From Bacteroidales bacterium (lineage in GTDB: Bacteria; Bacteroidota; Bacteroidia; Bacteroidales; UBA932), in contig JAKSJG010000003.1 in assembly GCA_024398365.1 (NCBI GenBank), positions 20,960-84,959 on the forward strand: a stretch of DNA of 64,000 bases, written 5' to 3'. The first letter of the stretch is position 1; each line of letters opens with the position of its first letter. Both the position numbers and the translations under genes were made by a program. Shown in pieces: positions 4,669 through 47,646 of this stretch. The notes beneath the pieces are model-generated. The model did not search any database. It saw only the letters and a list, made by a program, of their open reading frames with translations, and was not told the DNA's origin.

Positions 4669-7600
4669 TCTGTCTCCTCTGTCCTTAAAGGTTTGATCTT
4701 TTCTTCCAGCCACTCGAGTACCACGTACAGGCAAGGAGTGAGGAACAGCAGTCCTATGGTTCCAAGTGTCATACCTCCGATGACACCGGCTCCGATGGTG
4801 TTGTTGCCAATCGCTCCCACTCCGGATGACACCAGGAGAGGGAACAGACCTATGATCATCGTCATCACGGTCATGATGATAGGGCGGAATCTCTCCTTCA
4901 CGGCTGCAATGGCGGAGTGTGCTATGGTATAGCCCTGACGCCTCTTGGTGACGGCATATTCGGTGATGAGGATTGCGGTCTTCGACACAAGTCCTATGAG
5001 CATGATGAGACCGGTCTGCAGGTAGATATTGTTTTCAAGTCCCATAGCCCTGATCAGCAGGAAGCTTCCGAGCAGACCGGTAGGTACTGCGAGCAGTACG
5101 GCCAGAGGCAGCAGGTAGCTCTCGTACAGGGCGCTCAGTATGAGGTATATCAGGACGAAGCAGATGGCGAATATGATGACTGTGTTGTTGGTGTTGGCTG
5201 CTTCCTCCCTGGTGATGCCGCCGAATTCATAAGAGTAGCCTATCGGCAGGGTTTCAGCGGCGACTTCGCTGATGGCATTGATGGCATCGCCGGAAGAATA
5301 TCCTTCGGCGGCGCGGCCGTTGACAGCAATGCTCGGGAACATATTGAAGCGCGAGAGGCTTTCAGGTGCATATATCTTGGTCAGGGTGACAAACTGTGTG
5401 ACAGGAGCCATATCAGAGCCTATCCTGACGAATACGTTGTTGAGTGACTGCATATCCACACGTGACTCCGGTTCTGCCTGGACAATGACATTGTAAAGCT
5501 TGGTGAAGCGGTTGAATTTGGTGGATATTGTACCTCCGAAATATCCGTTCAGCACACTCAGCACCTCTTTCGGGGAGATTCCGGCGCGTTTGCATTTCGC
5601 AGCGTCAAGGTCGATGCGGTACTGAGGGAAGTTAGGATTGAAAGAGGTGTTGGCTGATCCTATCTCAGGTCTTTCCTTGAGATTGTTGAGGAATGCCGAA
5701 GTGATCTGGAACAAGTCTTCCACGCTGCCTCCCTTGGTGTCCTGGACGAACAGCTGGAAGCCGTTGGTGGCTCCGTATCCAGGGATCATCGCCTGTGTGG
5801 AGGTGAAGATGCTGGCATTGTTGATGGAGAGTGTCTGTTCCTTGACCCTGTCCATAATGGCATTCACGCTGTGGCTCTTGCCATGACGTTCGGACCAGTC
5901 CTTGAGACGCAGTGTGAAAGAGCCGTGGGACGCGCCCTGTCCTGCGATGACGCCGAATCCGGCGGTATTGTCATAGTCCCTGCATTCAGGAATCTTCTTG
6001 ATGACATCCTCTTCGATGCGGTCCATTACGCCCTTGGTGTATGCCAGCGAGCTTCCGGCAGGGGTTGTGACATCGATTCTGACGACGCCCATATCCTCCT
6101 GCGGCACGAGACCGGTCTTGGTGGTTATCAGATTGTAGGCCAACAGGCCTATGCTGACGACAATCAGAGCCGGCGCCACCCATTTGTGCCGGATGAAGAA
6201 GGCTGCACCGCTGATATACTTTTCCTTGACGGCATTGAAACCGCTTTCGAAGGCGGTGCTGAAACGTTTGCCGAAGCCCTGCTTTTCATTTTCCTCATTT
6301 TTCGGCTTGAGCAGTATTGCGCAGAGCGCAGGGCTGAGCGTCAGGGCGTTGATGGCAGACAATCCTACGGAGAATGCCATCGTGAGACCGAACTGAGTAT
6401 AGAATGTGCCCGATGTGCCGCCGATCAGCGATACCGGAAGGAACACGGCCATGAAAACGAGCGTACTGGTGATGAGCGCCGCGGTGACATCGTGCATGGC
6501 GTCGGTGGCAGCCTTGCGGCCGTTGGTATAGCCGCTGTCAAATTTGGCGTGCACCGCCTCCACCACGATGATGGAGTCGTCCACGACGACACCGATGGAG
6601 AGCACCAGCGCGAACAGTGTGAGGAGGTTGATGCTGAATCCTGCGAAATAGAGCAGCATGAATGTACCTATGACGGACACCAGTGTGCTGATGAGCGGTA
6701 TGATGGTGGACCTGAATGACTGCAGGAACACGAATACGATGAGAATCACCAGCAGGATGGCCTCGATGAGGGTGCGGACCACTTTTTTGATGGAAGCGTA
6801 GAGGAAGTCGTTGGCATTTGACAGCACGGTGTAGGTGATGTCCGCAGGGAAGTCCTCGGCTGCCTTGGCCATGATCTTGTCGATCTGCTTTATGACTTCC
6901 GTGGCATTGGTTCCAGGTGTCTGGTATATTGAGAAGTTGGCTCCTGGACTCTGGTTGACCTGACCTATGAACTGGTAGGACTGAGTGCCGAGTTCCACTC
7001 TTGCCACGTCCTTCAGGCGGAGGATTTCGCCGTTGGGAAGGGCTTTGATGACGATGTTTTCAAATTCTTCCGGCTTTTCGAGACGGCCCTTGTATCGGAG
7101 GGCGTATTCGAACGTCATATCGGCGTTCTCGCCGAATGAACCGGTGGCGGCCTCGATATTCTGCTCGTTGAGGGCTGCCGTGATGTCGGAAGGTATGAGC
7201 TTGTACTGGGCCATCACGTCAGGCTTCAGCCAGATGCGCATACCGTAGTCGCCTCCACGTACGTCAATGTCACCTACGCCCGGGATTCTTGAGATGGCCG
7301 GAACGAGGTTGATCTTGATATAATTGGCTATGAATACTCTGTCGTATGTGCCGTTCGGGCTGTAGAGCGCAATCTGCTCCAGCACGTTGGTCTGACGCTT
7401 CTTGACGGTGACACCGATCTCGGTCACTTCGGAAGGCAGCTGTCTGGTGGCTCTGGAGACACAGTTCTGGACGTTGACTGCCGCCATGTCCACATTGGTC
7501 CCCTGCTTGAAATAGATTCTGATGCTGGCGCTGCCGCTGTTGGTGGCCGTGGATTCCATGTAGGTCATGTTCTCCACGCCGTTGATGGCCTCCTCAAGAG

Positions 7601-9024: not shown

Positions 9025-9046
9025 AAAAAAATTCAAATTGACAGAT

Positions 9047-11113
9047 ATGCGACACAATCTCTTAACGTCCCTGACGGCAGTCCTTTTCATTTCTTCCTGC
9101 GCATTCGAGGGAGAAGAACTTATTCCAGTTGAACAGAAGGAAGCTATTACATTAAAGGCTTCCCTGGAATTGCCGGCGGACTTGTCCAGAACTTCGTTGA
9201 ACGATGACGGAAAAGTACTCTGGAGCAAAGGCGATGCCTTCTCACTGCTTTCCTCCACATCCAATGACCGCTTCGACATTGTAGATGGAGCAGGGACGGA
9301 CAATGCCGATTTCAAGGGAACGGTGTCCGGTCCGGCGCCATATTATGCATTATACCCATATTCAGAAAGCTGCAAGGTGGAGGACGGATCCCTGAAATTT
9401 TCCTTGCCGCAGGAGCAGACATTCGTAAACGGCAGCTTCTCCAGCGGAGCGTCACCGGCAGTGGCCGTGCTTCCGTCTTTGAATGACGGTTTGCATTTCA
9501 AGAATCTCTGCGGCATACTGCAGATCAACCTCTGCGGGTCCGGGAAGGTGGCCGGCCTCGAAATTATCAACCTGGACGGCAAGCCGCTCTGGGGCGACTG
9601 CGCGCTCAAGCTCGACGGCAAGCAGGGAACGGACGAACAGACTGTGACCATCAGCGGCGGCAGCAATGTCATCAGGGTGAACTTTGACAAAGTGGTGTCA
9701 CTTCTGAATACGAGTCCCAAGGTCGCCAATATCGTGGTTCCCGCAGGGTCTTTTGACAAAGGATTCTCCGTTAGGATATTTGATGAGAAAGGTGCTGTCA
9801 GGAGCTTCCTGACCGCCCAGAACTCTGCCGTCAAGACAGTAAGGTCGCAGATTAGCATCATGGAAAAGCTCAAGATTCCGGAAAACGGAGAGCCGAAGGA
9901 AGTCCTTGCAAGGGGATATTACGGCGATGTCTTCATGGACGGTTCGGTGGGCGTTTCATCACGCACGACACTGCCTGCCTGCCCTTATACCGGCCTTTCG
10001 CTCGAATATATCGCATCCAGCTCCAGCAACAGTTCAACAGATACCACGATGACCCGCAATATCTTCGGCGGATATGACGATGATCCGAACGGAGTGCTGC
10101 TCTATCCTGACGGAAAGCCGCGTTTCCGCTGCGTATATGTCAACGGCGGCAATGCCCGCAACCATGGCTCCGCTCTGGGTGAAACAGCCCGCAGCCGCTT
10201 CAAGACATACGTTGCCAACGGCGGCAGCTATGTCGGTTCCTGCGCAGGAGCTTATCTTGCCTGCACCGGCACCCACAGCGCCCTCTACAGTGTTTATCTC
10301 GGCATCTATCCCGGCATCTGCACAAATTGCAGCCTCCAGGATTCCTACACTGATATTTTCATCGAGCCGGATTCACCTCTTCTGGATTATTATGATTTCG
10401 GCGGAGATCTCCATGTGGAGCATGTCTATCACAATGGCGGATGCTTTATGTCCGACGACGATCTGATACCGGGCGCGGAAATCCTCTGCCGCTATGATTA
10501 TACCGACCCGGCCCGTCCGGCCAACGGCAAGCCTGTCATCCACCAGCAGGGATGCGCCTGGGCGTACAAGAAAAACGCTACTACCGGCCGCGTCATCCCT
10601 CTCGGATCACACCCTGAAGGTATTGATGAAGGCGAGAGGCGCGATCTGATGGCATCCATCCTGCTTTACGCCATAGATGGCAACGGCGAAGCCAAGTCCA
10701 AGGCAAACCTTTCCAATGGCACTACAAGAAAGCAGACAAACCCATCTTCAACCACACTTGCCGGTATCGGAGACGGTCAGTATCATCATTTCAAAGTGTC
10801 AATCCCTGCAGGCGCGAAGAATTTCAAGCTTGAGATCGCCAGCGAGCTCGCTGATTATGACCTTCATCTTTCCATGCGCAAGGGCGACTTCGCCTGGAGG
10901 AGCGAGGCTGATTTCTGCCTCACACAGAAAGGTTCCACCAAAACACTCGAACTTGACTCAATCGAGGAGGGAGAATGGTATGTCAGCGTATATTGTGCAA
11001 CCCTTCCTACATCCAAGCTTACGGATACCAAGGGCTGCAAATACTATGCATACGAAGGCCTCAATGCCGGTATCAAGGGCGTTCCTTACACTATCAAGGC
11101 AAGCTGGGAATAA
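9047..11113 (+). CDS. Surface lipoprotein: N-terminal beta-sandwich region, GATase1/BPL_N-like Cys-His-Glu domain and PPC-like C-terminal domain (paralog 1)
   Basis: The ORF-track start at 9038 is a TTG. The ATG at 9047 gives MRHNLLTSLTAVLFISSC (lipobox). The core LLYPDGKPRFRCVYVNGG...GGSYVGSCAGAYLA...GSHPEG aligns by eye with the two ORFs at 43513 and 45598. The C-terminus (GDGQYHHFKVSIPAGAKNFKLEI...GEWYVSVYC...GVPYTIKASWE) resembles a pre-peptidase C-terminal domain. Confidence 0.8.
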   Translation: MRHNLLTSLTAVLFISSCAFEGEELIPVEQKEAITLKASLELPADLSRTSLNDDGKVLWSKGDAFSLLSSTSNDRFDIVDGAGTDNADFKGTVSGPAPYYALYPYSESCKVEDGSLKFSLPQEQTFVNGSFSSGASPAVAVLPSLNDGLHFKNLCGILQINLCGSGKVAGLEIINLDGKPLWGDCALKLDGKQGTDEQTVTISGGSNVIRVNFDKVVSLLNTSPKVANIVVPAGSFDKGFSVRIFDEKGAVRSFLTAQNSAVKTVRSQISIMEKLKIPENGEPKEVLARGYYGDVFMDGSVGVSSRTTLPACPYTGLSLEYIASSSSNSSTDTTMTRNIFGGYDDDPNGVLLYPDGKPRFRCVYVNGGNARNHGSALGETARSRFKTYVANGGSYVGSCAGAYLACTGTHSALYSVYLGIYPGICTNCSLQDSYTDIFIEPDSPLLDYYDFGGDLHVEHVYHNGGCFMSDDDLIPGAEILCRYDYTDPARPANGKPVIHQQGCAWAYKKNATTGRVIPLGSHPEGIDEGERRDLMASILLYAIDGNGEAKSKANLSNGTTRKQTNPSSTTLAGIGDGQYHHFKVSIPAGAKNFKLEIASELADYDLHLSMRKGDFAWRSEADFCLTQKGSTKTLELDSIEEGEWYVSVYCATLPTSKLTDTKGCKYYAYEGLNAGIKGVPYTIKASWE

Positions 11114-21371: not shown

Positions 21372-21418
21372 TTTTTCTTTTTTTTGCACGATTGATATTT
21401 TTTTGCGACATTTACCGT

Positions 21419-21603
21419 CGCAATGGTTCTCTGTGTGAGGGATCTGCCCTCACTTGAGATTAAAAGGGAATCAGGTGAAAGACCTGAACAGTTCCCGCTG
21501 CTGTAAGTCAAGCGTCCGTACGGACTCGTCAGACATTCCTGCCACTGGCCGCCAAGGCCGGGAAGGCGTCTGCCGATGACAAGTCAGAAGACCTGCCACT
21601 GCG
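21419..21603 (+). promoter_or_regulatory. Cobalamin (B12) riboswitch
   Basis: It carries the conserved AAAAGGGAAtcaGGTGAAAgaCC core, CCCGCtGCTGTAA, GCCACTGgcc...GGGAAGGC and the B12 box AGTCAGAAGACCTGCC (21582-21597). A P1 helix is possible between cgcaatgg (21419-21426) and ccactgcg (21596-21603). Confidence 0.85.
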
Positions 21604-21968
21604 GTTTATTATTCAAACCTGCGGGTGACAGGTTTAGATGATGAGGATACGGACATCAATCAATCAGACAATCGGCGCCTCAGTGCGCTGCAGGGCAATG
21701 GAGTCGAAGCCACTGCCTTTGCCGGTATTATCTCCTGTACCGGTTGCCTCCGCATGCCCCTATGCGGCCGGTGTCGCCACTTACGGTACACTTGCCGCTC
21801 TTCCAACGGCCATTCAAAAAATAGATTCAGATATGAAAAATGTTTATTCGGCTCCTGAGAGCCGGGTTGTCCTCCTGTTTGAGGATGCTGTCATTGCCGC
21901 CAGCGGAAACAGCGGCTGTTCCAACTGGGAGTATTTCTGATATTCACAAACCAACCAAATAATCAATT

Positions 21969-23630
21969 ATGAAAACAAAATCATTATTGTCAGCAGCGGC
22001 TCTGTCCTTGCTGCTGGTCAGCTGTTCGGTCAACGACATCGACAGCGCCATTCCACAGTCTGAAGGAAACGGATTCACCCTTATCGGCGAGTGTTCACTG
22101 GGAACACGTACTGCATTCGGAACTCCGGGCCCATCATCAATACCGTTCACCTGGGCGGGCGGAGACTATGTATATTGCGGCACGCAGAAGAGTGCCGCGA
22201 TTGCAGAAGCTGCTTCCGTTGCCGAATTCAGGTTCAGCAAAGGCTCTGCAACCGACGGTACCGCCGTCATCTACAATATGACGGGAGAAAGCGCCACAGA
22301 GGCCAGGGTGCTTTCGGAGCAGGACGGTGAAAACCTCGGTGCAAGCGGTGACTTCGGTTACACTACCATCTCAAAAGGCTCATTCACCCTCAGCCATTAT
22401 ACCACATACCTCTGGCTCAATCCCTACTGCTCTGCGGGCGACATCACCGCGAAAGTGAAGTCTGTCAGCATTTCTGCAGATGCGGCGATTGCCGGCACGG
22501 CTGAATTCTTCACAGAAAACAAATGTTTCGGTGAAATCACAGGCGGGTCGAAGAGTGTCGATATCGTATTCTCCGAACCGAAAGCTCTCGGCAGTGCCGA
22601 ACCTCAGGGCGTATGGGCTGCCGCCGTCATTCTTCCTTCTACGGTCAGGAATATGGAAATCAGCTATTATTTCGATGACGCATCCGTTGCGGTAGTCAAG
22701 GTGGCTCGCGCGAACGGCCGTGTCCTTGAGGCCGGAAGGACCTATATGGTATCGTCCGACATTGCTTCAGGCGATATGATGGATGTGCTTACATTCGAGG
22801 ATGCCGACTACAGGGGTGACGGCAATTATGTATGTGCAGATGACTGGTCCTCTCTGATCGACGATCCGCAGTACGGCGGTCTTCTTCTCTATGGTGACGG
22901 CGGAATGGGTGTTTACGATATCAACGACGCTTATTGCTGGTACGACAAGGGAAATACCGAACTCTTCTCGAGACTCTCAGAAGGCTGGGGCGCCTGGGCA
23001 TTCTGGTCCGGCGGACACGCAGTCTCCAACTATGTCTCCGCTGACGTTGAGAGATACTGCGACTACGGTTCGCAGCTTACTGTCTACAAAGAGGGCGTAA
23101 CAGGCCTTCAGCGCGCAAAGGGTGGCCATAACGGTTCGGACAACTTCTGCATCCACTATGGTTATGCCGACAATTCCGGATACAGTCTTACTGAGGAAAC
23201 CCTTCCTTTCATCGAGTTCCACGATGGCATAAGCCGTGTCATTGACCATATGTACATCAACAACACCACCTATCTCCTCAAGTGCTGTGTCAGCGGCAAC
23301 GGTATGACAGCGTCCATCGGTGCTGACGACTGGATTAAAATCGTTGCAAAGGGTTACAATGCAAACGGTGAGTTCGTCAACAGCGCTGAATTCTATCTCT
23401 GTGCAGGTTCATCCATATCAGCCGACGGCAAGCTGACTCTTGTCAAGGAATGGACGAAGTGGGATCTCTCATCTCTCGGCAAGGTTGCCAGGGTGACATT
23501 CAATATGACAGGCTCTTCGGACAACGGATACGGTTTCAGCCAGCCTGCATACTTCGCATACGATGATGTCGCAGTACGTCGCGCAGCCACTTCCGCAAAT
23601 GCCGGCAGCAGCGAATTCGAAGTTCTGTAA
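21969..23630 (+). CDS. Surface lipoprotein downstream of the B12 riboswitch; C-terminal ~290 aa resemble the DUF4465-type domain of B12-locus (BtuH-like) proteins
   Basis: The lipobox is LLLVSCS. The C-terminal half (LTFEDADYRGDG...WSSLIDDPQYGGLLLYG...AFWSGGHAVSNY...GGHNGSDNFCIHYGY...MYINNTTY...DWIKIVAKGYNANGE...WTKWDLSSLGKV...FNMTGSSDNGYGFSQPAYFAYDDVAV) matches my recollection of DUF4465. The riboswitch context supports a corrinoid-related role. An HMM check is needed. Confidence 0.75.
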   Translation: MKTKSLLSAAALSLLLVSCSVNDIDSAIPQSEGNGFTLIGECSLGTRTAFGTPGPSSIPFTWAGGDYVYCGTQKSAAIAEAASVAEFRFSKGSATDGTAVIYNMTGESATEARVLSEQDGENLGASGDFGYTTISKGSFTLSHYTTYLWLNPYCSAGDITAKVKSVSISADAAIAGTAEFFTENKCFGEITGGSKSVDIVFSEPKALGSAEPQGVWAAAVILPSTVRNMEISYYFDDASVAVVKVARANGRVLEAGRTYMVSSDIASGDMMDVLTFEDADYRGDGNYVCADDWSSLIDDPQYGGLLLYGDGGMGVYDINDAYCWYDKGNTELFSRLSEGWGAWAFWSGGHAVSNYVSADVERYCDYGSQLTVYKEGVTGLQRAKGGHNGSDNFCIHYGYADNSGYSLTEETLPFIEFHDGISRVIDHMYINNTTYLLKCCVSGNGMTASIGADDWIKIVAKGYNANGEFVNSAEFYLCAGSSISADGKLTLVKEWTKWDLSSLGKVARVTFNMTGSSDNGYGFSQPAYFAYDDVAVRRAATSANAGSSEFEVL

Positions 23631-23935: not shown

Positions 23936-23948
23936 GTACCCGGAGCCG
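23936..23948 (+). repeat. 13-bp direct repeat gtacccggagccg (copy overlapping the tRNA-Leu 3' end)
   Basis: It is identical to 20820-20832. Twelve of its 13 nt lie inside the tRNA gene. Confidence 0.6.
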
Positions 23949-24020
23949 GGATCGAACCGGCACAGCCTTGCGGCCATTGGTGTTTGAGACCAACGCGTCT
24001 ACCGATTCCGCCATCCGGGC
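23937..24020 (-). tRNA. tRNA-Leu (anticodon CAA)
   Basis: The reverse complement is GCCCGGATGGCGGAATCGGTAGACGCGTTGGTCTCAAACACCAATGGCCGCAAGGCTGTGCCGGTTCGATCCCGGCTCCGGGTA. It has a 7-bp acceptor stem, anticodon stem TTGGT/ACCAA with loop CTCAAAC, a long class-II variable arm, T-loop TTCGATC and discriminator A. Confidence 0.9.
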
Positions 24021-40820: not shown

Positions 40821-41471
40821 TTATCCCATTTTTACGAGTATGCAGCGTACTGTGTCGGCAAAGTCCTTTGCGGCGTCAGTCACATCTTCGAGAGCCTGTA
40901 CGATACTCTTCTTCTTGATGAGTTCGATGGCGTCCTTCTCTTCCTTGAACAACTTGCTGAGGAATGAAGCGTATATCTCGTCAACGATGTGCTCTATCTC
41001 CTTCAGTTCATTGCAGAGCTTGTCAATCTCGCTGACATCCTTGCGTATGGTCTCGAACTTGTTGGTGATGGCAAGTATGGCGTGGGCTGCCTGATCTATG
41101 TATCCGGCCATCTCGGTGATTCTCTCATCAGTTCCGGCAGGCTGGTATATGGCAATCTTCTTGGCCGAGTCGCGGATGATATCCACCACCGTATCAATGT
41201 CCTGTGCGAGTTCGTGTATGTCATCGCGGTCAAAAGGGGTTACGAATGCCACCAGCAGTTCATCGGAAATCCTGGTGGTATAGGTATCACCGGTAGTCTC
41301 GCATTCCTTGATGCGGTGTGAGAGGATTTCACGATGGTCAGGGTTCTCTTCTCTGGCAAGTTCCATGAGGAGGCCTGAGGCTTTCACGAGATTTTCGGCA
41401 GCCTGTATGAAAAGAGGGAAGAATCTCTTCTCCTTGACTACGAAAAGTTGCAGGAAATTGTCAAGTTTCAT
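40821..41471 (-). CDS. DUF47-family (PhoU-like) phosphate transport regulator
   Basis: 216 aa and all-helical. It is the usual partner gene immediately upstream of pit (KEKRFFPLFIQAAENLVKASGLL..., ...DRDDIHELAQDIDTVVD..). Confidence 0.8.
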   Translation of the reverse strand: MKLDNFLQLFVVKEKRFFPLFIQAAENLVKASGLLMELAREENPDHREILSHRIKECETTGDTYTTRISDELLVAFVTPFDRDDIHELAQDIDTVVDIIRDSAKKIAIYQPAGTDERITEMAGYIDQAAHAILAITNKFETIRKDVSEIDKLCNELKEIEHIVDEIYASFLSKLFKEEKDAIELIKKKSIVQALEDVTDAAKDFADTVRCILVKMG

Positions 41472-41494
41472 ACTTCTTTATAAAGTTTAATCCG

Positions 41495-41502
41495 CAAATA
41501 TA
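41495..41502 (-). promoter_or_regulatory. Bacteroidota -7 box (TATATTTG on minus) for the DUF47-PiT-...-ABC operon
   Basis: The plus strand reads CAAATATA. It lies 24 nt upstream of the ATG at 41471. Confidence 0.45.
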
Positions 41503-41546
41503 CAAAAATAACGGAATTATTTGCAGTACTCCCGCCGGACATCGCT

Positions 41547-41640
41547 GCCGGAGGGGGTTGGAAGCGAAGGCGATTTGCGAGAGCGGATAATGGCGGAAGC
41601 CTGCATGGCGGTGATTAGCGCCATCCTTTGCCCGACGACC
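41547..41640 (+). repeat. Repeat module A, copy 1 (94 bp)
   Basis: The sequence gccggagggggttggaagcgaaggcgatttgcgagagcggataatggcggaagcctgcatggcggtgattagcgccatcctttgcccgacgacc is 92/94 identical to 42604-42697. It contains the hairpin atggcg-gtgattag-cgccat. Confidence 0.9.
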
Positions 41641-41808
41641 CCAAGAGGGCATTGCTGCCGCCAGGTGATTTTCAACATTGATGTAGCGCGGACTCCGCTC
41701 AAAAAGGAAAAAGCGCCATCAGGCGCTAGCGCAGGCCGCATTTGGGCCCCATTAATGGGGTAGCGGCCGAAGCGGCGGGGTGCGGGGCAGAGCCCTGCCT
41801 TATAACAA

Positions 41809-41893
41809 GGCCGCCGCCATGCGGTTGACGCCCCGCTCGAGACAATTTTCGCCTGAGTCCCAACCTCCTCCGGCGCAAGCCCGGCGGCGGGAT
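41809..41893 (+). repeat. Repeat module B, copy 1 (85 bp)
   Basis: The sequence ggccgccgccatgcgg..cccgctcgagacaa.tttcgcctgagtcccaacctcctccggcgcaagcccggcggcgggat is about 81/85 identical to 42753-42837. Its ends (ccgccgcc and ggcggcgg) are complementary. A third partial copy lies at 42435-42480. Confidence 0.9.
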
Positions 41894-41948
41894 TGAGGTT
41901 TGGGTGACAAGGTCCGTCCTCTGATGCCATTTTGAGAGGGGTTAGCAG

Positions 41949-42164
41949 CACCCAGGGCCTCAAATCGAGGCATGGGTGCCAGAGATGTGTCCTGAAGGAC
42001 CGTCAGAAGGGGGATGCCGGAACCCAAGGTCGCAAATCGAGGCTTGGGTGCCGGGTACCGGCCTCGGAGACTGGTCTGACGGGGTGGTCCGTCACCCAAA
42101 GGCCGAAATCAAGTTTTCGACCAGATTCGGTTCAGGAACGTAAAAGGTTCTGGGACGGACTTTT
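41949..42164 (+). repeat. Three units with exact 72-bp periodicity, each opening with a hairpin (c/a)acccaNgg..caaatc(g/a)ag..
   Basis: The units start at 41949, 42021 and 42093. Examples are cacccagggcctcaaatcgaggcatgggtg and aacccaaggtcgcaaatcgaggcttgggtg. Only the first ~30 nt of each unit is conserved. Confidence 0.7.
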
Positions 42165-42228
42165 CCGCTCAGCATGTGGTATCCGATTTGTGCTGTAATC
42201 GGCAATGTCTTGGTACATAGATATATGC

Positions 42229-42266
42229 AAAAAGACCCTCCTGCGAAATCCAGCGAGGGTCTTTTT
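42229..42266. terminator. Orphan bidirectional intrinsic terminator inside the non-coding repeat region
   Basis: aaaaagaccctc (42229-42240) pairs with gagggtcttttt (42255-42266), with additional ctg/cag pairing in the loop. It has an A5 run on the left and a T5 run on the right. No CDS lies within 750 nt on either side. Confidence 0.7.
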
Positions 42267-42494
42267 GTAAAGTCTTAAGTATCAGTATTTAGCGATTTGC
42301 GCTTGCGATTGACAAGCGGATTGGCGTATGAACTGATGGGTCGATGATAGTATATGGCAGAGCATTCCTCAGCCCAAGCCATGCTGAATTTACCCGCTTG
42401 AGTCCCGCAGCCATAATCCGGCTGAATTCACCCGTCTGAGCCCCAACTGCCTCCGGCGCAAGTCCGACGGCGGGATGCGAGCCGGGGCATCAAT

Positions 42495-42608
42495 GAGGTA
42501 CGGAGCCAGAAGGCCCTGGGAGGGCATTTTTGTCCGTACCTGTTGGTGATGGAAACTGCCGATGTGCCTCAGAAGGCTGTCTGGGGCAGGTCGGGATCGG
42601 GTAGCCGG
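42495..42608 (+). repeat. Isolated copy of the 116-bp unit (module C)
   Basis: The sequence is gaggtacggagccagaaggccctgggagggcatttttgtccgtacctgttggtgatggaaactgccgatgtgcctcagaaggctgtctggggcaggtcgggatcgggtagccgg. Confidence 0.9.
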
Positions 42609-42697
42609 AGGAGGTTGGAAGCGAAGGCGATTTGCGAGAGCGGATAACGGCGGAAGCCTGCATGGCGGTGATTAGCGCCATCCTTTGCCCGACGACC
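42604..42697 (+). repeat. Repeat module A, copy 2 (94 bp)
   Basis: It is 92/94 identical to 41547-41640 and in the same orientation. Confidence 0.9.
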
Positions 42698-42752
42698 GTT
42701 AGACATAGTCGAAGCGCAGCGGAGACTATGGCTAAAAGGGAGGAGTTGGATG

Positions 42753-42837
42753 GGCCGCCGCCATGCGGCTGGAGCCCCGCTCGAGACAACTTTCGCCTGA
42801 GTCCCAACCTCCTCCGGCGCAAGCCCGGCGGCGGGAT
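42753..42837 (+). repeat. Repeat module B, copy 2 (85 bp)
   Basis: See copy 1. It is followed by the same linker (gcgagccggggcatcaat) and a 116-bp unit, as is the partial copy at 42435. Confidence 0.9.
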
Positions 42838-42855
42838 GCGAGCCGGGGCATCAAT

Positions 42856-43260
42856 GAGGTACGGAGCCAGAAGGCCCTGGGAGGGCGATTTTGTCCGTAC
42901 CTGTCGGGGATGGAAACTGACGATGTGCCTCAGAGGGCTGTCTGGGGCAGGTCGGGATCGGGTAGCCGGGAGAGGTGCGGAGCCAGAAGGCCCTGGGAGG
43001 GCATTTTTGTCCGAACCTGTTGGTGATGGAAACTGCCGATGGGCCTCAGAAGGCTGTCTGGGGCTGGTCGGGATCGGGTAGCCGGAAGAGGTACGGAGCT
43101 GGAAGGCCCTGGGAGGGCATTTTTGTCCGTACCTGTCGGGGACGGAAACTGCCGACAGGCCTCAGAGGGCTGTCTGGTGCAGGTCGGGATCGGGTAGCCG
43201 GGAGAGGTACGGAGCTGGAAGGGCCTGGACGGGCGATTTTGTCCGTACCTGTCGGGATGG
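42856..43260 (+). repeat. Tandem array of ~3.5 copies of the 116-bp unit (module C)
   Basis: The units start at 42856, 42972, 43088 and 43204, an exact 116-bp period with about 90% identity between copies. Each unit contains ggtacgga...tccgtacc and ccag..ctgg inverted repeats. The last copy is truncated. Confidence 0.9.
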
Positions 43261-43479
43261 CAAGATGGAATGTGATCAAGCCCGGCCGAAGCGGCAGCCC
43301 CGTTTTTGCGCCTGCTATCCAAATACCTGTTATTCAGTGGCTTATGCGAACAGCCTTGCACCAAATGACTCAAGGCTATTGCTTGAATGCGCTGATAGCC
43401 AGCGATTTGGGTGGCAGCGCCTCCGCCATCCGGGCCACGCTATTTTTTCCGGGGCTGTACATAAATCTTAAAAAATGAG

Positions 43480-43487
43480 TAAATTTG
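43480..43487 (+). promoter_or_regulatory. Bacteroidota -7 box TAAATTTG upstream of paralog 2
   Basis: It matches TAnnTTTG and lies 25 nt upstream of the ATG at 43513. Confidence 0.5.
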
Positions 43488-43512
43488 CATAAAGTACATA
43501 TTATTGCCGAAA

Positions 43513-45576
43513 ATGACCGTAAAAGCATTTCATCCAAGCCTTGCCCTGACCGCAGCAGCGGTTATGATGGCGTGCGCAGCGGCCTGCTCACCGAAACAGG
43601 CTCCGCAGAACGACAGCGCCAAGGCGCAGAATACACAGAATACACTGACCGCAGCCGAAGAACCGGCTGTCATCCGCACCGACGTGCAGAACAAGGCATA
43701 TTTCAAGGATATCTTCATCGACGCAGGCATCGAGATCAACGGATTCCCGACGATGCCGGCAGTCACGATGCTCGGTATGTCCTACGAATGGATGCGCATC
43801 AGCAACGACACCCTGCCGAGCCAGGACCTCCAGCGCAGCATCGTCTGCGGCACGGCTGACGACACCAACGGACGTCTGCTCTATCCGGACGGCGAGCCGC
43901 GCTTCAGGATGATCTATGTCAACGGCGGTCTGGCCGAGAGCCACGGAGTGGCGCTTGAGATGCGCGGAAGGGATGCCATCAGGACCTTCCTCGCCAACGG
44001 TGGAAGCTATACCGGCAGCTGCGCGGGAGCATACGTCGCCACCAATGGCAGCCGCTTCCAGGGCGCCGGCTATCTCGGCATATGGCCTGCAGCCGGCCAG
44101 GCTGCCACCATCACGAAGATATATCCGAATTATATCATGCCGGAGGACAGCCCTCTGCTCAAGTATTACGACTTCGGCGGAGACCGCAAGGTCGATAGCG
44201 TGAAGCACTGGAACGGTCCGTACTTCGAGCAGTATCAGGACGTGCCTGGCACAGAGGTCCTGGCCTACAACGACTGGCCTTCCTACAAGTTCCACAACCT
44301 TCCTTCCATCATCGCCTACAAGCCTTCATATGTCACGGGCCGCGTCATTCTTCTCGGAGGACATCCGGAGCAGGTGGTGGACGGCGAACAGCGCGACCTG
44401 ATGGCTGCGGTGCTGCTTTATGCGAAGGACGGCAACGGCTGCGCCAAGGTCAAGGGACAGCTCCGCAACGGCGAGCTGCGCAGAATGACAAAAGCCACTG
44501 AGGACAACGATCCGGCATTCACGAAGATCGGCGACCGCCAGTGCCACCATTTCGTGATTGCCCTGCCGAAGAAGGCGCGCAACATCAAGGTCCGCCTCGA
44601 AGCGCTCGAGAACTACAACCTCAGCCTCCGCATGGCGAAGGAAACATACGCATTTGCCGAAGACGCGCAGTACAAGGTCGAGAACGGCAAGCTCGTCAAG
44701 GAATTCAACTTCCCTGAGCTCGAGGCCGGCACCTGGTACATCGGCGTGCAGTGCGAGGATACGGTGACTGCCACCGAGACCGAAGGTTGCGACACATACG
44801 AGAATACCGGCGTGCTCAACGGCGTGCCTTACACAATATCCGCATCCTGGGATATCGCAGAGACCGGCACCGCGCTGATGCGCAGGTCCGCCGATGTCAA
44901 TGAGACCATCAAGCTCATCAAGGCTCCGGTCACCCGCGTAACAGCTCTCGACAGCAGCGTGACCAAGGTGGTATTCGCCACCGGCTCAGCTTCCACCGAA
45001 GGCGTGCGCATTGACGCCGCCGGGTCCGAAGAGCCGATATACGCATCCCTCGCCGCTGACGGTGTCCTCACCATATCCACACCGGCAGCTGCCATCAAGC
45101 TCAACGAAGGCAGCTCAAGTCTCTTCGACGGCATGGCGGCCCTCAAGTCTGTGGAAAACTTCGGAGCGCTGGATTTCTCCAACGTCATCTCGCTCCTCGG
45201 CTGGTTCCGCAATTGCCACAGCCTGGAGATGGTTGACCTCTCCGAAGCCGCCATTGACGGCTCCCGTATACTCGGAATGAACTCATTGTTCCGCTATATG
45301 CCGAATCTCAAGGAGATCAACCTCGGCAACAAATGTTTCTCCGACCCTCTGGTGAAATCCCCGTCCACCTTCTTCACGGGCGCGTCCGACAAGGACGGCG
45401 AAAGGACCTGCTCCGTATCCGGCGAACTGACCATACGCTGCATCCCCGCCACTGCAGAGTGGCTTGCCGGCACCGGTCTCAAGCTTCTCCATGACGGCAA
45501 CAAGACCATCGAGCCGGTGAAGATAAAGTTCATCGACTGCCTCAGCGGCCAGGAGATCAACCCTGTCTGGAAATAA
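43513..45576 (+). CDS. Surface lipoprotein: GATase1/BPL_N-like Cys-His-Glu domain, PPC-like domain and BspA-type (DUF285-like) leucine-rich repeats (paralog 2)
   Basis: The ORF-track start at 43504 is a TTG. The ATG at 43513 gives MTVKAFHPSLALTAAAVMMACAAACS (lipobox). Domain motifs are LLYPDGEPRFRMIYVNGG...GGSYTGSCAGAYVA...GGHPEQ, then GDRQCHHFVIALPKKARNIKVRLE...GTWYIGVQC...GVPYTISASWD. The C-terminus (FGALDFSNVISLLGWFRNCHSLEMVDLSEA...MNSLFRYMPNLKEINLG) is BspA/DUF285-like. Confidence 0.8.
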   Translation: MTVKAFHPSLALTAAAVMMACAAACSPKQAPQNDSAKAQNTQNTLTAAEEPAVIRTDVQNKAYFKDIFIDAGIEINGFPTMPAVTMLGMSYEWMRISNDTLPSQDLQRSIVCGTADDTNGRLLYPDGEPRFRMIYVNGGLAESHGVALEMRGRDAIRTFLANGGSYTGSCAGAYVATNGSRFQGAGYLGIWPAAGQAATITKIYPNYIMPEDSPLLKYYDFGGDRKVDSVKHWNGPYFEQYQDVPGTEVLAYNDWPSYKFHNLPSIIAYKPSYVTGRVILLGGHPEQVVDGEQRDLMAAVLLYAKDGNGCAKVKGQLRNGELRRMTKATEDNDPAFTKIGDRQCHHFVIALPKKARNIKVRLEALENYNLSLRMAKETYAFAEDAQYKVENGKLVKEFNFPELEAGTWYIGVQCEDTVTATETEGCDTYENTGVLNGVPYTISASWDIAETGTALMRRSADVNETIKLIKAPVTRVTALDSSVTKVVFATGSASTEGVRIDAAGSEEPIYASLAADGVLTISTPAAAIKLNEGSSSLFDGMAALKSVENFGALDFSNVISLLGWFRNCHSLEMVDLSEAAIDGSRILGMNSLFRYMPNLKEINLGNKCFSDPLVKSPSTFFTGASDKDGERTCSVSGELTIRCIPATAEWLAGTGLKLLHDGNKTIEPVKIKFIDCLSGQEINPVWK

Positions 45577-45597: not shown

Positions 45598-47646
45598 ATG
45601 AAAAAGCATAATATTCTCTCAAGTGCAGCCGGTCTGGCAGCAGTGGTCTGTCTGGCAGCCTGCACACCGAAGGCCGCTCCACAGAAGGCGGAAGCCGCCG
45701 AAAATCAAACTGCGGCAGTGGCAGAAGAGCCTGTGCTCGTCCGCACGGACGTGCCCAACAAGGCATTCTTCAAGGATCTGTTCATCGATTCCGGCATCAG
45801 GATCAACGCATTCCCTACGATGCCGACCACTTCCTACCTCGGCCTGTCCTACGAATGGATGCGCATAGGCAAGGACACACTGCCCAACCAGGACCTTCAG
45901 CGCGAGATCATCTGCGGCTCCGCCGATGACACCAACGGCCGCCTGCTCTATCCGGACGGCGAGCCTCGTTTCAAGGTGATCTATGTCAACGGCGGACTCT
46001 CCGACGGCCACGGCCTGACTATGGAGATGCAGGGCCGCGAGACCTACCGCAAATTCTTCGCCAACGGCGGAAGCTATACAGGCAGCTGCGCTGGCGGATA
46101 TTTGTGCACAGCAGGTTTCGACAGGTATTATCAGGGCCCTGGCTACCTCGGCATCTGGCCTGGAATGGCCGATGAGGCTGCCATAACCAAGATTTTCCCT
46201 AACTACATCATACCGGAGGACTCTCCTCTGCTCAAGTATTACGACTTCGGCGGAGACTTCAAGGTCGATAGCGTGAAGCACTGGAACGGTCCTTTCTATG
46301 CACACTGGCAGGATGTTCCGGGCACCGAAGTGCTCGCGCGCAACGAGATTCCTGGACGCATCCTGGACAGCCATCCTTCCATCATCGCATGGAAGAAGGA
46401 CGCTTTCACCGGACGTGCAGTGCCTTGCGGCGGCCATCCCGAGCAGGTGGTTGACGGTGAGAAGCGCGACCTGATGGCGGCCATACTCCGCTATGCGATG
46501 GACGGTGTCGGCTGCGCCAAGGTCAAGGGCCAGCTCCACAACGGCGAGCTGCGCAGGATGACGAAGGCCACTGAGGACAACGACCCGGCATTCACCAAGA
46601 TCGGCGACCGTCAGTGCCACCATTTCGTGATAAATGTCCCTAAGAAAGCCCGCAACATCAGGGTGCGTCTCGAGGCGCTGGACAATTACAGGCTCAGCCT
46701 GAGAATGGCTCAGGGCACCTTCGCCTTCAAGGAAGACGCTCAGTACAAGGTGGAGAACCGCGAGCTTGTCAAGGAACTCGTCTTCGACGAACTGCCTGCC
46801 GGCGTATGGTACATCGGCGTGCAGTGCGAGGACACGGTCAATGCCACCGAGACTGAAGGCTGCGACATCTACACCAATACAGGCGTGCTCAACGGCGTGC
46901 CTTACACGGTCTCCGCATCCTGGGAGACCGCCGATATGGGCAAGGCCATCCTCAGCCGCGGCGCCGACGTCAATGAGATGATCAAGCTCCTCGCCGCTCC
47001 TACGGCGCGCGCTTCATTCCTCGACAGCGCCATCACAAAGATTGTCTTCGTGACGGGCTCGGCTTCAAAGGAAGGCAGACGCATCGACGCTCCTGAATCC
47101 GAAGAACCTATCTACGCCTCAATGACCACCGACGGCGTTGTCACCATCAGCACCCCGGCTCCTTCCATCAAGGCAGGCAAGGCTACCTCCAACCTCTTCG
47201 CAGGCTTCACCAAACTCACTGAGATCGAGAATCTCGCCGCCCTTGACATGAGCGGAGCCATTTCGTTGATGTCCTTCTTCAAGGACTGCCGTTCCATCGA
47301 GAAACTTGACATCTCCTGCCTCAACACATCGAAGATCGTCGGCATGGACAACATGCTCAGGTATATGCCTAAGCTCCGCGAACTCAACATAGGCACATTG
47401 CGCTCCATTGACAAACTCACAGAGAAGCCTTCATACTTCTCCTGCGGCACGTCCGATGCCGATGACGTGAGGACATGCGCCGCTTCCGGCGAACTGACAA
47501 TCCGCTGCACGAAGGAAGCCGCCCAGTGGCTTGCCGGCACCACTCTCAGGCACATGCACAAGGGCAATGATACCATCGAAGCGGTCAAAATAAGATTCAT
47601 AGATTACCTCACCGGGGAAGAGTATTTCCCTGAGTGGCCAAAATAA
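45598..47646 (+). CDS. Tandem paralog of the preceding lipoprotein (paralog 3), same three-domain layout
   Basis: The lipobox is VCLAACT. It is collinear with 43513..45576 over the whole length, with long identical stretches (DDTNGRLLYPDGEPRF, ANGGSYTGSCAG, PEDSPLLKYYDFGGD, KVDSVKHWNGP, ELRRMTKATEDNDPAFTKIGDRQCHHFVI, GVQCEDTV.ATETEGCD, GVLNGVPYT.SASW). Confidence 0.85.
   Translation: MKKHNILSSAAGLAAVVCLAACTPKAAPQKAEAAENQTAAVAEEPVLVRTDVPNKAFFKDLFIDSGIRINAFPTMPTTSYLGLSYEWMRIGKDTLPNQDLQREIICGSADDTNGRLLYPDGEPRFKVIYVNGGLSDGHGLTMEMQGRETYRKFFANGGSYTGSCAGGYLCTAGFDRYYQGPGYLGIWPGMADEAAITKIFPNYIIPEDSPLLKYYDFGGDFKVDSVKHWNGPFYAHWQDVPGTEVLARNEIPGRILDSHPSIIAWKKDAFTGRAVPCGGHPEQVVDGEKRDLMAAILRYAMDGVGCAKVKGQLHNGELRRMTKATEDNDPAFTKIGDRQCHHFVINVPKKARNIRVRLEALDNYRLSLRMAQGTFAFKEDAQYKVENRELVKELVFDELPAGVWYIGVQCEDTVNATETEGCDIYTNTGVLNGVPYTVSASWETADMGKAILSRGADVNEMIKLLAAPTARASFLDSAITKIVFVTGSASKEGRRIDAPESEEPIYASMTTDGVVTISTPAPSIKAGKATSNLFAGFTKLTEIENLAALDMSGAISLMSFFKDCRSIEKLDISCLNTSKIVGMDNMLRYMPKLRELNIGTLRSIDKLTEKPSYFSCGTSDADDVRTCAASGELTIRCTKEAAQWLAGTTLRHMHKGNDTIEAVKIRFIDYLTGEEYFPEWPK

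Follow-up and report, generated by a model that had tools for sequence, protein, structure and literature searches.

Several families of non-coding repeats built from modules or hairpins have been described in bacteria. BOX elements have the composition A-Bn-C, in which boxB varies in tandem number; they fold into stem-loops, cluster and insert into one another (PMC3049150). REPINs are hairpins that show compensatory changes and form tandem clusters (PMC3116915), the BrickBuilt MITE (miniature inverted-repeat transposable element) from the Bacteroidales species Porphyromonas gingivalis consists of a leader, a minisatellite and a tail (PMC4596501), and Correia elements can invert (PMC10969869). 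Here we describe a 2-kb island of nested repeats in 64,000 nucleotides of the genome of a Bacteroidales bacterium (assembly GCA_024398365.1, contig JAKSJG010000003.1; this whole stretch is called the window, and positions are counted from its first letter). The island lies between a DUF47/PhoU_div gene and a pair of lipoprotein genes. On balance, we read it as the work of a lineage-restricted, modular family of interspersed repeats, the unit of conservation of which is a hairpin of the + strand, piled up here by tandem duplication, nesting and recombination between inverted repeats.

The 2-kb gene-free island is real, and its repeats exceed chance. The 15-mer GCCGGAGGNGGTTGG occurs five times at two or fewer mismatches, always within the island, where 0.57 occurrences are expected, and none of 100 shuffles reached five. 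All the repeat families proposed in a sequence-only reading of this DNA were recovered at the coordinates given there. The two A modules (41547-41640 and 42604-42697) are identical at 92 of 94 positions and the two B modules (41809-41893 and 42753-42837) are 95% identical, with a partial B of 86% identity at 42433-42476. The 116-nt C unit begins with C1 at 42495 and recurs in a tandem array at 42856-43260 (3.5 copies with 89% matches; Tandem Repeats Finder score 635), the last half unit of which starts at 43204, and a block at 42433-42622 is copied at 42794-42983 with 91% identity. Of the three 72-mers claimed, the first two are clearly related (51/74 identical), but the third is only weakly similar (44-46/80). 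The GC content, said to be clearly elevated, is raised but modestly so (0.595 for the island against 0.541 for the window; 0.61-0.635 in its repeat parts), and the central spacer at 42165-42432 reaches only 0.47. A stronger compositional signal is the excess of G over C on the + strand, with a GC skew of +0.15 to +0.24. Altogether the window holds two super-units, A1-L1-B1-72mers-(spacer)-B'-C1 followed by A2-L2-B2-C2-C3-C4-C5'-tail, where L1 and L2 are the tips between the A and B modules. No module copies were found elsewhere in the window by blastn or nhmmer.

As had been stated, the island contains no credible open reading frame (ORF): ten shadow ORFs, the longest of which reach 167 amino acids, gave no Pfam match at E<=0.1, and their sole database relatives are shadow ORFs of the same repeats. 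These ORFs, together with the fact that short-read contigs break within the region, could be taken as signs of a decayed protein-coding gene or of an assembly artefact. We find either barely credible, since the substitutions preserve base pairs rather than codons, and since the junctions recur in independent assemblies from other samples (L001, L002 and L072, among which the C copy number differs). The island is not a CRISPR array, for its units abut without spacers and no cas domains were found in the window. The opinion that it is not an insertion sequence (IS) was borne out as well.

The A and B modules are not independent elements, as first thought, but the two arms of a single long, conserved, imperfect hairpin of 215-365 nt, composed of the A arm, a variable tip and the B arm. 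The short GC-rich inverted repeats had been regarded as local features, and the pairing of A with B over about 52-64 bp had been overlooked; the five 15-nt GCCGGAGGNGGTTGG sites are the most perfect part of the stem, at the base of the hairpin. Long hairpin 1 (41529-41893, + strand) comprises an extended base (41529-41546), A1 (41547-41640), the branched 168-nt tip L1 (41641-41808) and B1 (41809-41893). For 41525-41900 the predicted RNA fold has an energy of -195 kcal/mol (z = -7.0); in it, A1 pairs with B1, and the extended base, the 18 nt at 41529-46 to the left of A1, pairs with the end of B1 (41875-93). Long hairpin 2 (42604-42837, + strand) comprises A2 (42604-42697), the tip L2 (42698-42752) and B2 (42753-42837); the fold of 42600-42840 is predicted at -134.5 kcal/mol (z = -8.3) on the + strand and -122.1 kcal/mol (z = -7.0) on the - strand.

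Comparison of copies supports this structure. Nine units drawn from different contigs share a consensus fold in which 64 bp join A to B and the linker forms the tip; nine of these 64 predicted pairs show double (compensatory) changes. In an alignment of ten units with 52 pairs, 96.5% of the cells form standard pairs, against 34-44% in controls with the 3' partners shifted by 1-3 columns; compensation on both sides is seen in nine pairs (22 cells), and the covariation score is 0.168 against 0.098 ± 0.010 in shuffles, none of 500 of which reached the observed value. Several matched double substitutions, such as GG to AA in the A arm with CC to TT in the B arm, set the subfamily formed by L075b, L079, L080 and L077 apart from the window type, and the 15-nt sites themselves covary between lineages (GGAGGAGGTTGG/CCAACCTCCTCC in one, GGGGCGATTGG/CCAATCGCCTCC in the other). 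In length and sequence the tip is variable (55 nt, 77 nt and the branched 168 nt), but it retains a hairpin with a conserved base.

Modules of this family are present in 14 short metagenome contigs from ENA, in at least four genomic contexts besides the DUF47 locus (those named here are L001, L002 and L072-L081; L003 is a strain with an identical DUF47 protein, and L004 is a sister species). The DUF47 locus is represented by the window, L001, L002 and L072. At other loci, the repeats lie upstream of bipA (L074, L075), beside genes of the Rpn family of PD-(D/E)XK proteins (Rpn/PDDEXK_2, TIGR01784; L074, L077, L078), between a fimbrillin-like gene and glnA (L076), upstream of an XRE regulator gene (L079) and beside a beta-lactamase-fold gene (L081); L073, L080 and L081 show arrays only or other contexts. 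The recurring order in the 14 contigs is [leader or 72-mers]-A-tip-B-[72-mer-like hairpin and B'-like piece]-C(n)-half C-linker, with n from 0 to 4, and it is tandemly repeated in L073, L075 and L080. Thus the suggestion of REP/MITE-like elements (REP, repetitive extragenic palindrome) or a family of structured RNAs lay in the right neighbourhood, as modules recur at other loci in related genomes and their structure is supported by covariation.

Broken copies are found too: solo A arms, solo B halves, nested A-X-A-tip-B arrangements and half elements. A solo A arm, an 'X' module and then a complete hairpin (A-X-A-tip-B) are present in L079 (179-283), L078 (1371-1477) and L073 (1280-1384), which suggests either that elements are nested in the tips of others or that A arms have alternative partners (B or a distal B').

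Genes annotated as Rpn-family 'recombination-promoting nuclease/putative transposase', 91-93% identical to one another, stand directly beside repeats in L074 (1334-2221), L077 (2-718) and L078 (241-1092), an association biased by ascertainment because the contigs were found through the repeats. An identity of 13 nt, CTTGCTTCCGATT, links the tip of the long hairpin to a hairpin upstream of the Rpn genes, and in L077 a half element is joined to the upstream region of the Rpn gene exactly at this microhomology. L077 also carries an internally deleted remnant of an IS30-family transposase gene (1312-1620; NCBIfam NF033563, E = 4e-21). The remnant is fused to the terminal half C unit at the same point in three contexts (L077, L074 at ~1240 and L081 at ~395).

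The island is bordered on the left by the DUF47/PhoU_div gene (40821-41471, - strand), which is followed by a PiT/PHO4 phosphate transporter gene, and on the right by two tandem paralogous lipoprotein genes with a weak BPL_N-like domain (43504-45576 and 45598-47646, + strand). The closest GTDB genome is the Bacteroidales metagenome-assembled genome (MAG) L004, a sister species with a 94% identical DUF47 protein; the next relatives, at ~60%, belong to Candidatus Cryptobacteroides or are other MAGs from gut or rumen. Similarity to L004 and L003 stops at ~41529 on the left, and that to L004 picks up again at 43457 on the right. L004 also has the tandem lipoprotein pair and shows the same gene pair 255 bp apart, with only ~90 nt of B-like and U-like relics between them: at 5806-5944 it holds a 47-nt piece resembling the B arm and a 41-nt piece resembling window positions 42392-42432. 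Because its intergenic site keeps these relics, the repeats must already have been here in the common ancestor with L004.

Closer relatives differ among themselves. L072, from another sample, is colinear with 42424-43921 and has fewer C units. Its hairpin 2 is identical over 234/234 positions, its C units and tail are 83-95% identical (91% for the tail), and the flanking coding DNA is 98.5% identical; since the coding DNA is already so similar, the identity of the hairpin is only mild evidence of constraint. In L002, A adjoins the DUF47 promoter as it does in the window. In L001 the flanks are the same, but the hairpin between them is turned round and has tip L2, not L1 (a comparison across samples, not within one population). 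L003 (1-317) has quite different DNA upstream of the breakpoint at ~41529, with the start of another small gene, and the relics next to its DUF47 promoter include a diverged inverted copy of the tail hairpin of the island. The family has evidently been resident at this intergenic site for a long time, with fast turnover.

Both flanking transcription units keep their own promoters outside the repeats. In a motif scan, overlapping Bacteroidetes-type -7 boxes TATATTTG and TATTTTTG of the operon of DUF47/PhoU_div and PiT were found at 41495-41510 on the - strand, at the left boundary, and at the right one the lipoprotein gene, with its start codon at 43504 or 43513, has the -7 box TAAATTTG at 43480-43487 on the + strand. 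The scan detected no Bacteroidetes TAnnTTTG promoter box on either strand within the island, and the search for promoters of the + strand turned up nothing better than weak approximations, namely ATTATTTG (41516-41523) and, at the boundary of L076, CACATTTG.

Bacteroidales are known for invertons, and the flipped copy in L001 raises the question of a programmed DNA-inversion switch (inverton or shufflon), in which a site-specific recombinase would act on the five 15-bp GCCGGAGGNGGTTGG sites (orientations + - - + -), turn the DNA between them round and so vary expression of the DUF47 operon or the lipoprotein genes. The confinement of all five sites to the island, against an expectation of 0.57, would fit such a switch, as would the arrangement of L001, which equals that of the window after one or more inversions between these sites, and the inverted, diverged tail-like piece that L003 carries at the same breakpoint. 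However, the sites covary like a base-paired stem and not like a core recognized by a protein, being only the base of a helix of 52-64 bp. Furthermore, no invertible segment contains a promoter box, the promoters of both flanking genes stand outside the island, no recombinase was seen among the large ORFs of the 64 kb, and the flipped segment of L001 has tip L2 instead of L1, which points to an old rearrangement rather than to switching. We regard an inversion switch as very unlikely.

The remaining parts of the island also consist largely of hairpins. H72, three hairpin units of ~72 nt, occupies 41938-42153 (+ strand), and its third unit is degenerate; units homologous to the 72-mers are found upstream of the hairpin at the bipA locus (L074/L075). 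The 72-mers (z = -4.6) and the C array (z = -5.3) both fold better than shuffles. The AT-richer spacer that follows (42165-42432) is unique to this genome and has degenerate B-like repeats at 42389-42432. Within it, the terminator noted earlier at 42229-42266 is a genuine inverted repeat with a T-run on both strands: a bidirectional hairpin of the intrinsic-terminator type, with the stem AGACCCTC/GAGGGTCT, an A-run before it and a T-run after it, which forms in the minimum free energy fold. The stretch just before it (42213-42232, GTACATAGATATA...) resembles, in a local alignment, the 5' untranslated region (UTR) of the L004 lipoprotein gene just before its start codon, and the orphan terminator follows directly. 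Because of this resemblance, this stretch and the terminator may be the collapsed remnant of a lost gene copy.

Next comes B' (42433-42476, + strand), identified in repeat alignments as a solo 3' portion of the B arm with no adjacent A arm; a B'-like piece before C' is also present in L079 and L080. C1 (42495-42603, + strand) is a 116-nt C unit that shares its final bases with the start of A2. After hairpin 2, three complete tandem C units, C2-C4 (42856-43203, + strand), each open with a conserved 46-nt hairpin, GGTACGGA...TCCGTACC, and the half unit C5' (43204-43256, + strand) has this hairpin only, which is the usual 3' end of the arrays at all loci. The opening hairpin is almost invariant in 15 full and eight half copies, its few changes being one-sided and leading to G-U; inside it, a small GC hairpin and then a T-run score as terminator-like on the + strand only. 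The second half of the C unit could form any of several small helices; covariation there is weak, and no settled structure emerges. The tail (43257-43456, + strand) contains linker-like sequence, the degenerate start of another A arm and the hairpin AGCCTTG...CAAGGCT.

The family is rare and lineage-restricted, because an exhaustive HMMER search over 1.84 billion representative proteins yielded only ~10 true relatives, all shadow ORFs; a protein search with the translated shadow ORFs gave 13 matches, every one in an ENA metagenome assembly. An nhmmer search with hairpin and C-unit models, which covered the window and 67 loci in the genomes of DUF47 relatives, detected no further copies. The exact pattern GCCGGAGGNGGTTGGRASYSARGSSR, which is too strain-specific, had no matches in genome contigs or viral contigs, and its one match in JGI metagenomes, within an amidase gene of a high-GC organism, is due to chance. 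The invariant 26-mer CGAAGGCGATTTGCGAGAGCGGATAA had no match in the viral scan, and a distant blastn search of one unit against plasmids and phages found none. An exact look-up of the lipoprotein (with the ATG start) returned no record. As to Rfam, the island has no match at E<=10, and among eight related contigs the sole match was a sub-threshold one to SAM-IV (28.7 bits against a gathering score of 38, E = 0.14). It lies in L073 at 293-383, in an 'X' module between arrays, and is probably due to chance.

We favour the interspersed-repeat reading because the modules occupy unrelated contexts at multiple loci, the copies are mosaic or truncated, tandem numbers vary, segments have flipped, relics persist, and there is neither a promoter nor a consistent partner gene. 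MITE-type traits are also present: the element is non-coding, multi-copy and highly base-paired, and shows presence/absence polymorphism. A super-unit consists of the A-tip-B hairpin, optional 72-nt hairpins and a solo B', and a run of 116-nt C units, one to four in tandem, closed by a half unit. The family would persist because the hairpin of the + strand is recognized or copied, in the manner of REPIN or BOX, by an enzyme encoded elsewhere in the genome, and the direct and inverted repeats of the family itself may recombine or cause slippage during replication, so producing local growth, shrinkage and flipping. If transcribed, the elements would form very stable stem-loops, and the C units might act as terminators or insulators on the + strand between the divergent DUF47 operon and the lipoprotein genes. 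No terminal inverted repeats (TIRs), target-site duplications (TSDs) or transposase were found, and the spreading enzyme would need to have its gene outside the window. The mode of spread is one that we infer, and the IS30 and Rpn genes are mere neighbours of some copies.

Several observations weigh against this reading. With one cluster in 64 kb and ~10 related ORFs among the 1.84 billion proteins, the copy number is far below that of REP or BOX. The large ORFs of the 64-kb window include no transposase or recombinase. L076 2374-3060, the sole element with both ends delimited by locus comparison (its left end is common to L078), has no TIRs. No TSD was found at its boundaries, nor a direct repeat around the segments of the window bounded by inverted repeats; a clean empty site for such a comparison is not available, as L004 retains relics. 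The 15-nt inverted repeat is internal, since conserved sequence runs past its ends on both sides. Moreover, three features would also fit a dedicated RNA: the + strand folds better by 9-19 kcal/mol in nine of nine units, with 27 G-U cells and only four A-C cells in its structure; the bulges and internal loops are near-invariant across units; and the A-side gene is divergently oriented in each of the four contexts that could be read. Because of the energies and the predominance of G-U over A-C cells, the + strand is the predicted folding strand, as RNA or as single-stranded DNA, although part of the bias follows from G-richness alone.

These features lead to the main alternative, that of a structured non-coding RNA gene of ~0.4-0.9 kb on the + strand, with a long hairpin and repeated 3' hairpins in several paralogous or tandem copies; its action would be either in trans, say as a scaffold or sponge that binds proteins, or in cis on the adjacent genes. 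Besides the strand bias, the G-rich + strand and the divergent A-side gene, it would account for the covariation-supported hairpin with its conserved internal loops, for the variable-length tip that retains the hairpin, and for the intrinsic terminator at 42229-42266 after hairpin 1 and the 72-mers, along with the terminator-like C hairpins of the + strand. However, the TAnnTTTG box is missing from the island and from the start of the conserved element, and the upstream sequences differ between loci. It would be unusual for a functional RNA gene to have copies that are truncated, nested or flipped, as L001, L077, B' and the solo A arms are, the sister species L004 does without it, Rfam offers no match in the island, and a G-rich strand folds better as RNA whatever its function. 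An RNA gene is a tentative alternative, rather unlikely in our view.

We consider it unlikely, to a greater degree, that the A-tip-B and C hairpins represent a new class of large structured nucleic acid, either a functional non-coding RNA of the + strand or the single-stranded DNA substrate of an unrecognized mobilization system. For the latter, the Rpn/PD-(D/E)XK 'putative transposase' and the IS30 remnants near other copies could be candidate genes.

Other candidates were dropped. A retron, diversity-generating retroelement, group II intron, riboswitch or ToxI-like antitoxin array found no reverse transcriptase, Rfam match or consistent neighbouring gene in its favour. Integron attC sites, as in clusters lacking an integrase (CALIN), are hairpins of 57-141 nt that share one orientation and have a 5' RYYYAAC...GTTRRRY 3' core. 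They do not agree with a hairpin of 215-365 nt, the base of which, 5' ..GGTTGG...CCAACC.. 3', is the reverse of the attC arrangement, and no integrase is present.

Elsewhere in the window, a third paralogue of the lipoprotein genes lies at 9038-11113, which like those at 43504-45576 and 45598-47646 is on the + strand and encodes ~690 amino acids with a weak BPL_N-like domain. A cobalamin riboswitch (RF00174, 107 bits) at 21407-21614 (+ strand) stands upstream of a DUF4465 protein gene (21969-23630), downstream of which are an anaerobic ribonucleotide reductase gene and a cluster for a FecCD/ABC/periplasmic-binding transporter. A tRNA gene (RF00005, 54.8 bits) was recognized at 23937-24020 on the - strand.

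If the interspersed-repeat reading is true, a well-delimited and structurally unusual family, GC-rich and with a very long covarying hairpin and 116-nt tandem units, joins the few described in Bacteroidales. It would explain why short-read assemblies of this lineage break at these loci, and the space between a phosphate-transport operon and two genes for surface lipoproteins would be marked as a hotspot at which strains differ by rearrangement. Were the hairpin a functional RNA, it would be a new entry into the RNA biology of a phylum that, to our knowledge, lacks Hfq and ProQ. Were it the substrate of an Rpn-type or other enzyme, it would offer an entry to the long-unclear role of the 'putative transposase' PD-(D/E)XK proteins.

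Among known systems, the family shares much with BOX of S. pneumoniae and S. suis, which is likewise a modular composite with a variable tandem module, intergenic, present at multiple loci in one lineage and predicted to form stem-loops, and which shows length variation among strains, clustering, mutual insertion and spurious ORFs from large copies (PMC3049150). As in BOX, the order of modules is fixed here, the tandem number of one module varies and multiple intergenic loci are occupied. However, BOX modules are ~45-60 nt (~115-133 nt in S. suis) with IS-like terminal inverted repeats, whereas the family of the island has a 215-365-nt hairpin and a 116-nt tandem unit, is GC-rich, showed no TIR and was seen in far lower copy number. 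Homology to boxA, boxB or boxC is not expected, as the host phylum and GC content differ.

With the REP/REPIN-RAYT system and bacterial interspersed mosaic elements (BIMEs), the family has in common extragenic, GC-rich hairpins that show compensatory changes and whose arms are better conserved than the tip, as well as tandem clusters at fixed spacing, a mosaic higher-order arrangement and long vertical persistence (PMC3116915). However, REPs are 20-60 nt and REPINs ~100 nt long, with tens to hundreds per genome and a RAYT gene, whereas here the hairpin is two to three times longer, with arms of ~94 and 85 nt, only a single cluster occurs in 64 kb, and a RAYT (Y1 transposase) gene was not seen in the window or the fetched contigs. 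The family departs from REP/REPIN in the defining properties of size and, within the 64-kb window, copy number, and from MITEs in TIR and TSD. Elements of the ERIC and Correia type resemble it in that each is an imperfect palindrome throughout and folds when transcribed, and Correia elements are invertible (PMC10969869), but they are 100-200 bp long and have defined TIRs and TSDs and a high copy number. Bacteroidales invertons resemble it in having short inverted repeats around a 185-300-bp segment that exists in both orientations among strains; here, however, the segment has no promoter, no recombinase is nearby and the inverted repeats covary as a stem.

BrickBuilt of Porphyromonas gingivalis is also a Bacteroidales element, strictly intergenic and species-restricted, with a leader, a minisatellite, a tail and a variable internal copy number (PMC4596501). 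It has a repeat unit of 23 nt, its ends are small inverted repeats and it shows promoter activity, whereas the unit in the island is 116 nt and follows a long hairpin, with no promoter motif found. The earlier judgement that the architecture fits none of the standard classes was overstated, for modular mosaics and clustered, compensated hairpin repeats are documented in BOX, REPIN/BIME and BrickBuilt. In short, the repeat family of this uncultured gut Bacteroidales lineage is previously undescribed, and it stands closer to these three than to a new kind of system.

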